DNA from: Candidatus Nealsonbacteria bacterium
GTDB lineage: Bacteria > Patescibacteriota > Minisyncoccia > Minisyncoccales > JAGMDC01
Reading direction: 5' to 3'
Assembly (NCBI GenBank): GCA_030643485.1
Contig: DAOWLG010000030.1
Location: forward strand, 1 to 36,252
DNA length: 36,252 nucleotides
In this document: piece after piece, positions 35,674-36,252 of the stretch
Layout of the letters: each line of letters opens with the position of its first letter
Numbering within the stretch: position 1 is the stretch's first letter
Program-made: the position numbers and the translations under genes
The notes under the pieces: model-generated
What the model was told of the DNA's origin: nothing
What the model saw: the letters and a program-made list of their open reading frames with translations, nothing else
Database searches by the model: none

Positions 35674-36252
35674 ATGGACAAGCTACAACAAGCCAAAAAA
35701 AGAATTGAAAAACTAAAAGCGGTGATAAATTATCACCGTTATTTATATCATGTCCTAAATCAACAGGAAATTTCTGATGCGGCTTTGGATTCCCTAAAAC
35801 ACGAACTTTACAAATTAGAACAGCAATATCCGGAATTTATTACCTCGGATTCTCCAACCCAGAGAGTAGGAGGCATGCGATTAAAGGAGTTCAAAAAAAG
35901 GAAGCATGAAATTCCTATGCTTTCAATTGAGGATATTTTTTCCGAAAAAGAACTTTGCGACTGGGAGGCATATTTGAACCGTTTTATTGAAGCCGGACGA
36001 GACCCGTTCTCGTCCGTGCACGGACGAGAACGGGTCTCGTCCAAACTTTTTGAATATTTCTGCGAGCCAAAAATAGACGGTTTTGCGGTTACTTTGATTT
36101 ACAAAAATGGAATTTTTACCTGCGGCGCCACGCGCGGCAATGGCAGAATCGGCGAGGATGTTACGCAAAACCTGAAAACCATAGAAAGCATCCCTCTTAA
36201 ATTAAGAGAATATGGGCGAGCCGGACGAGACCCGTTCTCGTCCGTGCACGGA
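35674..36252 (+). CDS. ligA: NAD-dependent DNA ligase, 5' part (runs off the window)
   Basis: Not in the ORF track. HRYLYHV...ISDAALD.L..EL..LE..YP...[40 protein letters not shown]. Confidence 0.96.
35995..36042. repeat. Palindrome E inserted in frame in ligA
   Basis: Perfect 48-bp palindrome encoding [16 protein letters not shown]. Confidence 0.95.
36223..36252. repeat. Palindrome E, second ligA copy (truncated by the window end)
   Basis: GGACGAGACCCGTTCTCGTCCGTGCACGGA in the same frame ([10 protein letters not shown]). Confidence 0.92.

Follow-up and report, generated by a model that had tools for sequence, protein, structure and literature searches.

What are the two long palindromes that lie in frame within the gene of the NAD-dependent DNA ligase (ligA) of a Candidatus Nealsonbacteria bacterium, and how may they have come there? 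The gene is situated at the end of the 36,252-nt contig DAOWLG010000030.1 (C47) of assembly GCA_030643485.1, which was analysed at its full length and is referred to as the window in the following. The organism is an ultra-small bacterium of the candidate phyla radiation (CPR), its assembly, labelled G000, comprises 765 kb with a GC content of 34.6% in 72 contigs and is 85% complete, and up to 30 relatives, labelled G001 onwards, were compared with it. With a probability of about 0.75, the palindromes are copies of a REPIN, an inverted doublet of repetitive extragenic palindromic (REP) hairpins, that is associated with a REP-associated tyrosine transposase (RAYT) and was inserted twice in frame into ligA, where it is translated as a loop.

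Two palindromes within ligA

The element GGACGAGACCCGTTCTCGTCCGTGCACGGACGAGAACGGGTCTCGTCC is a 48-bp loop-less perfect palindrome inside ligA, in which two inverted 21-nt hairpins (8-bp stem, 5-nt loop) are arranged around a 6-nt palindromic centre. A second copy is ended by the contig end after the first 30 nt of the identical palindrome, and its missing half opens the reverse complement of contig C4, which overlaps the end of C47 by 10 nt. The parts of the locus are as follows:

35674 to 36252, plus strand: 5' part of ligA, NAD-dependent DNA ligase, residues 1-193, running off the contig and continued in frame by 512 codons on the C4 reverse complement
35991 to 35994, plus strand: AGCC foot outside copy 1, a case of the family motif AG[CT][CT], from the sequence
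35995 to 36042, no strand: copy 1, the 48-bp doublet, LigA residues 108-123 (16 aa), from sequence, fold and orthologue comparison
36043 to 36048, plus strand: AAACTT flank of copy 1, the reverse complement of which contains the foot motif; it also follows copy 2 on C4
36064 to 36081, plus strand: ligase motif I, EPKIDG, with K133, D135 and G136 invariant in 25 sequences
36219 to 36222, plus strand: AGCC foot of copy 2, from the sequence
36223 to 36252, no strand: copy 2, the first 30 nt of a palindrome identical to copy 1, with the other half on the C4 reverse complement
35619 to 35665, no strand: related 47-nt palindrome of the same family (stem 22, loop 3), intergenic, between the stop of the upstream 144-aa open reading frame (ORF; stop at 35613-35615) and the ligA ATG

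At the DNA level, the presence of two in-frame palindromes in ligA is confirmed. The sequence-only reading that preceded this analysis had described them correctly as loop-less pairs of inverted 21-nt hairpins that both follow AGCC, share the ligA frame (ATG at 35674) and encode the same 16 residues on either strand, the minus-strand ORF 35923..36168 indeed giving this peptide; it had overlooked the third, related palindrome upstream of the gene. Copy 1 ends 7 codons before the EPKIDG motif, whose catalytic Lys codon is 36070-36072, and copy 2, of which that reading had seen the first part, is completed on C4. With up to 3 mismatches, the 21-mer has 8 matches in the window, counting both strands, versus 0.00 expected from 100 shuffles. 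The palindrome region folds stably as RNA (-48.3 kcal/mol, z = -9.8, a value reached by none of 200 shuffles) and as DNA (-30.4 kcal/mol, z = -10.3). Outward-facing GAGACC/GGTCTC sites, which suggested a relation to type IIS restriction, were noted as well.

It had been considered that ligA might be broken downstream and replaced by another ligase, which is not the case: the gene is intact beyond the contig break, and no second ligA was found in G000. The part on C47 covers positions 2-95 of PF01653 and the part on C4 positions 98-253, followed there by the OB fold, zinc finger, HhH and BRCT domains (PF03120, PF03119, PF12826, PF00533), and the best PDB match of the ligA ORF is 1b04 (E 4.5e-39). 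LigA presumably remains active despite the inserts. In an AlphaFold2 model of the 193-residue fragment, made from a 25-sequence alignment (mean pLDDT, the predicted local distance difference test score, of 68), residues 110-127 have a pLDDT <50 and are without secondary structure; this is weakly compatible with a floppy insert loop, in a model of a truncated domain in which motif I, too, is badly predicted.

A repeat family in the genome

The genome was scanned for perfect palindromes with a stem of at least 11 and a loop of at most 9, and for doublets of the family pattern, defined as GAGACCCG, a gap of 10-50 nt, and CGGGTCTC. There are 22 such doublets in G000 and 0 in the reversed control. 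The palindrome scan returned 194 cases, for which a rough and uncomputed estimate from base composition would let one expect a handful, and 27 of them belong to the ligA family, among them five inside-out (tail-to-tail) doublets and three variants, of which two are of the GGCCCG type and one is AAGACCCG-ended (C49:56717). If three imperfect copies and the second ligA copy are counted as well, the genome-wide search that the sequence-only reading had proposed thus revealed a family of about 31 members across G000. Its elements are 38-52 bp long with stems of 17-26 bp, doublets predominate, and the exact ligA form with the same 6-nt centre is found at five loci (ligA copy 1, ligA copy 2, C15, C70 and C64:15562).

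The core 13-mer occurs in 59 units, and all four outer stem positions are paired in 26 of these; in a control with the 3' flank shifted by 4 nt, this holds for 1 of 59. As four types of outer stem exist in the family (GGAC, GGGC, TGCC, TGGG), which vary and yet are paired, the small hairpin, and not just the long one, is the conserved unit. The conserved GAGACCCG is located at the stem-loop junction and is kept across genera. Outside the palindromes, the foot AG[CT][CT] is found within 9 nt on 35 of 54 sides, versus 7.8% of random windows (p 7e-26), and in 10 of the 27 copies it is present on both sides. A direct repeat of more than 1 nt is absent from the flanks of 25 of the 27 copies, and thus there is no target duplication.

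The 194 palindromes of G000 fall in at least a dozen sequence families. One of these, with a GATGTC-N-GACATC centre, has 17 copies, and palindromes of other families are found also in the window, e.g. at 1260-1304, 21264-21299, 21353-21390 and 18309-18345. Some other-family palindromes match hairpins that bracket RAYT genes of relatives, such as the ACTACGAGAAC type beside the RAYT of G006.

A RAYT-like gene beside a family copy

Of the 30 relatives, 17 have a match to the transposase profile PF01797, among them 6 of the 7 same-family genomes, with 1-5 matches per positive genome. When G000 was searched by tblastn with the PF01797 proteins of the relatives (17 queries), 15 of them matched one single place, C64:15619-15804 on the minus strand (E <1e-8), which represents the last 62 codons of a RAYT-like gene that is ended by the contig end. 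The fragment is 72.6% identical to a complete PF01797 protein of G020 (L200; E 7e-26). A family palindrome (C64:15562-15603), which equals ligA copy 1 over 42/42 nt with the centre included, starts 12 nt after the stop of this fragment and is followed by the enolase start. The RAYT/Y1 transposase flanked by the repeat, as it had been predicted, has thus been found as far as the 3' end and its neighbouring palindrome are concerned; the catalytic part is unassembled.

The complete genes of the relatives score above the PF01797 cut-off and have an NHxH motif, and 9 of the 17 have a YIHTNP-like motif. Y1_Tnp genes of relatives are bracketed by their own hairpins, which are found at the stop codon and, as further copies, inside the reading frame (L190, L197, L198, L200, L203), an arrangement that corresponds to the REPtron of TnpA-REP/RAYT systems. 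The hairpin of L190 in G020 differs from the ligA unit by one compensated stem change and one loop base, L200 of the same genome has a GAGACCCG-type hairpin upstream as well as within its frame, and in G005 the hairpin of the RAYT L198 is identical to a hairpin in the ComEC gene.

The enolase gene next to the RAYT fragment (C64:14264-15643, L212) contains two other-family palindromes in frame, a 48-nt double hairpin (C64:14575-14622) and a 42-nt palindrome (15082-15123).

Placement in genes

A palindrome was counted as lying in a gene if the reading frame is open for at least 150 nt on both sides. By this rule, 18 of the 27 family copies are inside long open frames, which does not differ from random positions (61.9%, p = 0.69), whereas only 35 of the 167 other palindromes are, which hence avoid genes (p = 5e-27 versus random, Fisher 4e-6 versus the family). 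The hosts that could be named by Pfam are SecA (two copies), RpoC, IleRS, ThrRS, MurB, a Mur ligase, PolX, PPDK, ComEC, TatD, an ABC ATPase, an AddA-like helicase-nuclease, FemAB (two copies), a radical SAM protein, a lamin-tail-domain (LTD) protein (two copies) and two PMT-type glycosyltransferases, and 2 of 20 scanned host ORFs are without a Pfam family. All three reading phases are used by the 22 doublets (11, 6 and 5), and these give three different peptides in which Arg, Asp, Glu, Ser, Gly, Pro and Thr abound. The in-gene copies that were examined leave the host frame open and in register.

The IleRS frame of G000 (C54:15087-18053, L087) has 989 codons, versus about 1080-1185 in most relatives; as its Pfam match begins at residue 13, the length difference must be internal or C-terminal.

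Insertion, age and turnover

Of the 30 relatives, 27 yielded a homologue of LigA, and none of the 27 has either 16-residue insert, while deleting exactly 48 nt gives the length of the closest orthologue at both ligA sites. Likewise, PPDK of G000 is longer by 17 aa, corresponding to a 51-nt palindrome, and these residues are present in 0 of 5 relatives, and SecA site 1 and the RpoC site are empty in 12 of 12 relatives each. The orientation-independent in-frame insertion into essential genes that the sequence-only reading had deduced is borne out by these comparisons of LigA, SecA, RpoC and PPDK.

Two ligA genes of relatives have palindromes of their own. In G020, a 27-nt hairpin lies in the same loop as copy 2, and a Y1_Tnp gene (C12:33486-33725, L206) is directly downstream of ligA, with no matching hairpin seen beside that gene. 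In G029 (L049), an A+T-rich palindrome with a 12-bp stem is found at the place of copy 1, before motif I, without extra residues.

The exact doublet pattern is restricted to the surroundings of G000: it is present in 4 of 7 same-family genomes, with 1-3 copies each, and in 1 of 33 other families of the order, and in a sample of 400 genomes of the phylum there were 2 pattern matches, both with long non-palindromic interiors and thus of a different kind. The copy number is 0-3 in relatives versus 22 in G000. The ligA copies look recent, because they occur in G000 alone and do not differ from one another, and to this extent they agree with the earlier notion of a young element; the family itself is old and is found also in other genera. 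In ileS, a homologous insert including its flank is shared by G000 and G002 (2 of 17 genomes). The G002 copy is decayed, and ileS of this genome is divided between contigs at it (C1 end, L126/L131; C7 start, L130). As ligA and the G002 ileS are both split at palindromes, the element repeatedly fragments assemblies.

Several host sites are occupied in other genomes as well. In one loop of ComEC, 7 of 10 relatives have a hairpin with a perfect stem of 7-20 bp, the sequence being different in each, the DUF72-like gene has hairpins in 6 of 8 genomes, and for the Mur ligase, 3 of 5 relatives have them in the loop at places that differ by a few codons. Of the six loci of G020's own hairpin family, 4 are in loops that also bear a G000 copy, and in the LTD protein the same loop is occupied by different genome-specific hairpins.

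Proposed mechanism

The ligA palindromes would be two REPIN-type copies, that is inverted doublets of a 21-nt REP hairpin with an AG[CT][CT] foot, and the element would be the cognate repeat of a resident RAYT-like HUH/Y1 enzyme. By analogy to TnpA-REP of E. coli, the enzyme may bind the hairpin on single-stranded DNA, cut it and rejoin it, which would copy the doublet to new sites without target duplication, and it is presumably the RAYT that moves the element. The common 48-nt form is a multiple of three, is G+C-rich, has no stop in any of the six frames and encodes small polar residues in each of them; a copy in a tolerant loop would therefore spare the gene and get translated, and the insert is probably kept in mRNA and protein. 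Most copies would be inside genes simply because the genome has almost no intergenic space.

Several points weigh against this explanation. The profile search of G000 with PF01797 gave no match, and the RAYT of G000 is a 62-codon 3' fragment only, with the HUH and Tyr motifs outside the assembly. The foot is AG[CT][CT] instead of the canonical GTAG or CGTC, and by inspection no unpaired GTAG or CGTC tag is in the flanks of the 27 copies. The AGCC and AAACTT that are common to both ligA copies could be part of the element, which would then have 57-58 nt, or a target preference; orthologues carry Ala and Lys-Leu codons at the ligA junctions, and therefore the feet may be target preference and not part of the element. 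Among the Logan contigs of one DNA run, there was no insert-free ligA allele or excision product, and the modelled structure of the LigA fragment is of low quality near the insert. Lastly, simple copy-and-paste does not explain why different genome-specific hairpins occupy the same loops, as in ComEC and the Mur ligase. This pattern may reflect repeated hits on a few tolerant loops, a renewal of inherited sites to match the resident RAYT, or selection on the hairpins.

Alternative explanations

Because the same loops hold genome-specific hairpins and the ComEC hairpin of G005 equals its RAYT hairpin, it is possible, albeit doubtful, that hairpin sites have been resident for long across the order, with their sequence being overwritten by, or co-evolving with, the hairpin of the RAYT of the respective genome. 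This would take place by RAYT-dependent cutting and rejoining in place, by conversion, or by hairpin-targeted reinsertion, and coding sequence would then be the habitat of the REPIN-RAYT system, perhaps with a benefit for the host. The same loops lend themselves also to the rather unlikely view that the hairpins are selected functional elements, either of RNA (processing, pausing, stability) or of DNA (gyrase or protein binding), that make use of coding loops since the genome has no spare intergenic space, and that the RAYT link is secondary. Hairpins of different sequence recur in ComEC, the DUF72-like gene and the Mur ligase across genera, 4 of 6 G020-family loci share their loops with G000 copies, the GAGACCCG junction is conserved across genera, and, in the authors' reading of the alignment, 21-nt hairpins of G005 and G006 at the same spot differ by three two-sided compensatory changes. 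Template switching at quasi-palindromes, however, is an established mutational mechanism that can keep arms complementary without selection, and a functional signal is difficult to reconcile with a placement relative to genes that is like that of random positions, with the use of all three phases, with functionally unrelated host genes, and with copies in ligA, PPDK, SecA site 1 and RpoC that are private to G000; also a copy number of 0-3 in relatives and of 22 in G000 is unlike that of a housekeeping signal. It is very unlikely that the element is instead an RPE- or MITE-like remnant (Rickettsia palindromic element; miniature inverted-repeat transposable element) of another transposon, e.g. 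with a DDE, GIY-YIG or DUF559 nuclease, that is moved by a non-RAYT enzyme. Rickettsia RPEs do behave alike (PMC10969869, in its available part), and G000 is only 85% complete, but target-site duplications are lacking, the element consists entirely of a hairpin doublet and has no structure of terminal inverted repeats with a unique core, and a family copy lies 12 nt from the RAYT stop. TnpB (PF07282) and DUF559 (PF04480) were not found in G000, in searches that did not cover the DDE, GIY-YIG and serine recombinase families.

Two further explanations concern the gene product and the assembly. A perfect RNA duplex of 22-24 bp (-48.3 kcal/mol) 7 codons before the catalytic motif seems costly, and one may therefore think of a removal of the inserts, as a mini-intron from the mRNA, by translational skipping, or by cutting from the protein. 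This is highly improbable, since the host frame is kept in all in-gene copies examined, which would be needless if they were removed, the perfect stem has no bulge-helix-bulge shape, and 16 residues are much too short for an intein. That an assembler misplaced the palindromes in ligA is scarcely credible, even though copy 2 is at a contig end and no contig or read crosses either palindrome. Logan contigs of one DNA run, which is probably the source sample, match 35756-36020 and 36019-36248 without differences and end at the palindrome centre, none spanning either palindrome. On all four sides, as seen in Logan contigs and at the ends of C47 and C4, unique ligA sequence nevertheless continues into a half-palindrome, reading frame and colinearity with orthologues are maintained, and the family is present in about 30 contexts and also in independently assembled relatives. 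Two joints in Logan contigs (35831>35909 and 36037>36214, one contig each; sides 37 and 39; 90% likeness) were taken as belonging to other organisms or family copies and not as variants.

Implications

If the palindromes are RAYT-associated REPINs, a near-minimal genome can accommodate a REPIN-RAYT system mostly within its essential genes. The copies constitute a natural tolerance experiment with peptide insertions in LigA, SecA, RpoC and tRNA synthetases, one of them 7 codons from the active-site motif of the ligase, and the RAYT paralogues with their own hairpins and with in-gene copies that change in step offer comparative material on the recognition of hairpins by RAYTs. On the practical side, the palindromes break assemblies, as in ligA and in ileS of G002, and add spurious-looking "insertions" to protein families.

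Neighbouring genes and RNase III

Upstream of ligA, the 144-aa ORF at 35181-35615 (plus strand) begins with a hydrophobic segment, is rich in Cys in its C-terminal half and is pilin-like (type IV) by eye, with no Pfam family at E 1e-4. It is preceded at 33350-35152 (plus strand) by the gene of a 600-aa sensor histidine kinase (HAMP, HisKA, HATPase_c).

A loss of RNase III as the cause of the tolerance of long duplexes was considered and dropped. RNase III (PF14622, PF00636) was not found in G000 and is present in 19 of 20 relatives; the neighbours of rnc are also missing from G000, and the genes that flank rnc in G001 map to the ends of the G000 contigs C35 and C16, and thus the gap is probably an assembly gap.

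Comparison with known systems

REP/REPIN-RAYT systems (TnpA-REP, "REPtron") are well described in Proteobacteria and other phyla (PMC3116915, PMC3337134, PMC3333891, PMC3479197, PMC8266576, PMC6006769; here and below, statements refer to the available parts of the cited papers). Like these, the family in G000 has a short hairpin unit of genome-specific sequence, forms larger hairpins from inverted doublets, is free of target duplications and persists vertically. A Y1/HUH gene with the repeat on its flanks, which also belongs to such systems, is seen in relatives, and in G000 as the 3' fragment next to a family copy. It differs in the 6-nt spacer of the doublet, which results in a loop-less perfect palindrome, in the foot AG[CT][CT] in place of GTAG, in that two thirds of the copies are intragenic and not mainly extragenic, in the 1-5 Y1_Tnp matches of relatives that have any, instead of one, and in that the RAYT of G000 is known from its 3' end alone.

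That REPINs are extragenic, as the sequence-only reading had stated, holds as a rule with published exceptions. Di Nocera et al. (2013; PMC3733652) described REP singles and dimers that are in frame in genes and encode 20-30 residues, often in replication and repair genes or tRNA synthetases, including the DNA ligase of Opitutus terrae; different REPs were found near the same recB site in two Xanthomonas species, and some Rickettsia RPEs are such REPs. These CGTC REPs have stems of 8-9 bp, loops of 4-5 nt and head-to-head dimers, similar to the 8 bp and 5 nt found here. Most members of those families are extragenic, however, and only a minority lies in genes. They have an unpaired CGTC tag and a CCA tail, whereas here the only CGTC of the element sits within the paired stem and a CCA tail is absent by inspection; in the text available, no transposase was reported for them, whereas here a RAYT-like gene lies beside a copy; and they are from another phylum.

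Also the subclass 2.4 of TnpA-REP (Quentin et al. 2018; PMC6006769), which has in-frame REPs in the tnpA-REP gene and for which "double foot" REPs have been described, resembles the present case, as the RAYT frames of relatives contain their own hairpin, the HUH motif is NH[ILV]H-like and the foot is on both sides in 10 of 27 copies; the Tyr motif is YIHTNP-like here and YIxNNP there, and the likeness is one of features. The RPEs (Ogata et al. 2000/2002, as summarised in the part of PMC10969869 at hand) are about 100-150 bp long and have a conserved peptide per family. They too are palindromes that were inserted in frame into a small A+T-rich genome, in numerous genes that are not related to each other and are often essential, and they are read through as peptide, but the present elements have 38-52 bp (commonly 48), three phases with three peptides, and a link to a RAYT. 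From MITEs derived from DDE transposons they are set apart by the lack of a target-site duplication (25 of 27 copies without a direct repeat of more than 1 nt).

In the literature searched by titles and abstract starts, no description of such in-gene palindromes in Patescibacteria/CPR was found. As intragenic REPs and Rickettsia RPEs have been published, the kind of element is already known, and the present case is new in its phylum, in the compactness of its perfect doublet, in its different foot, and in having gene interiors as the main habitat.

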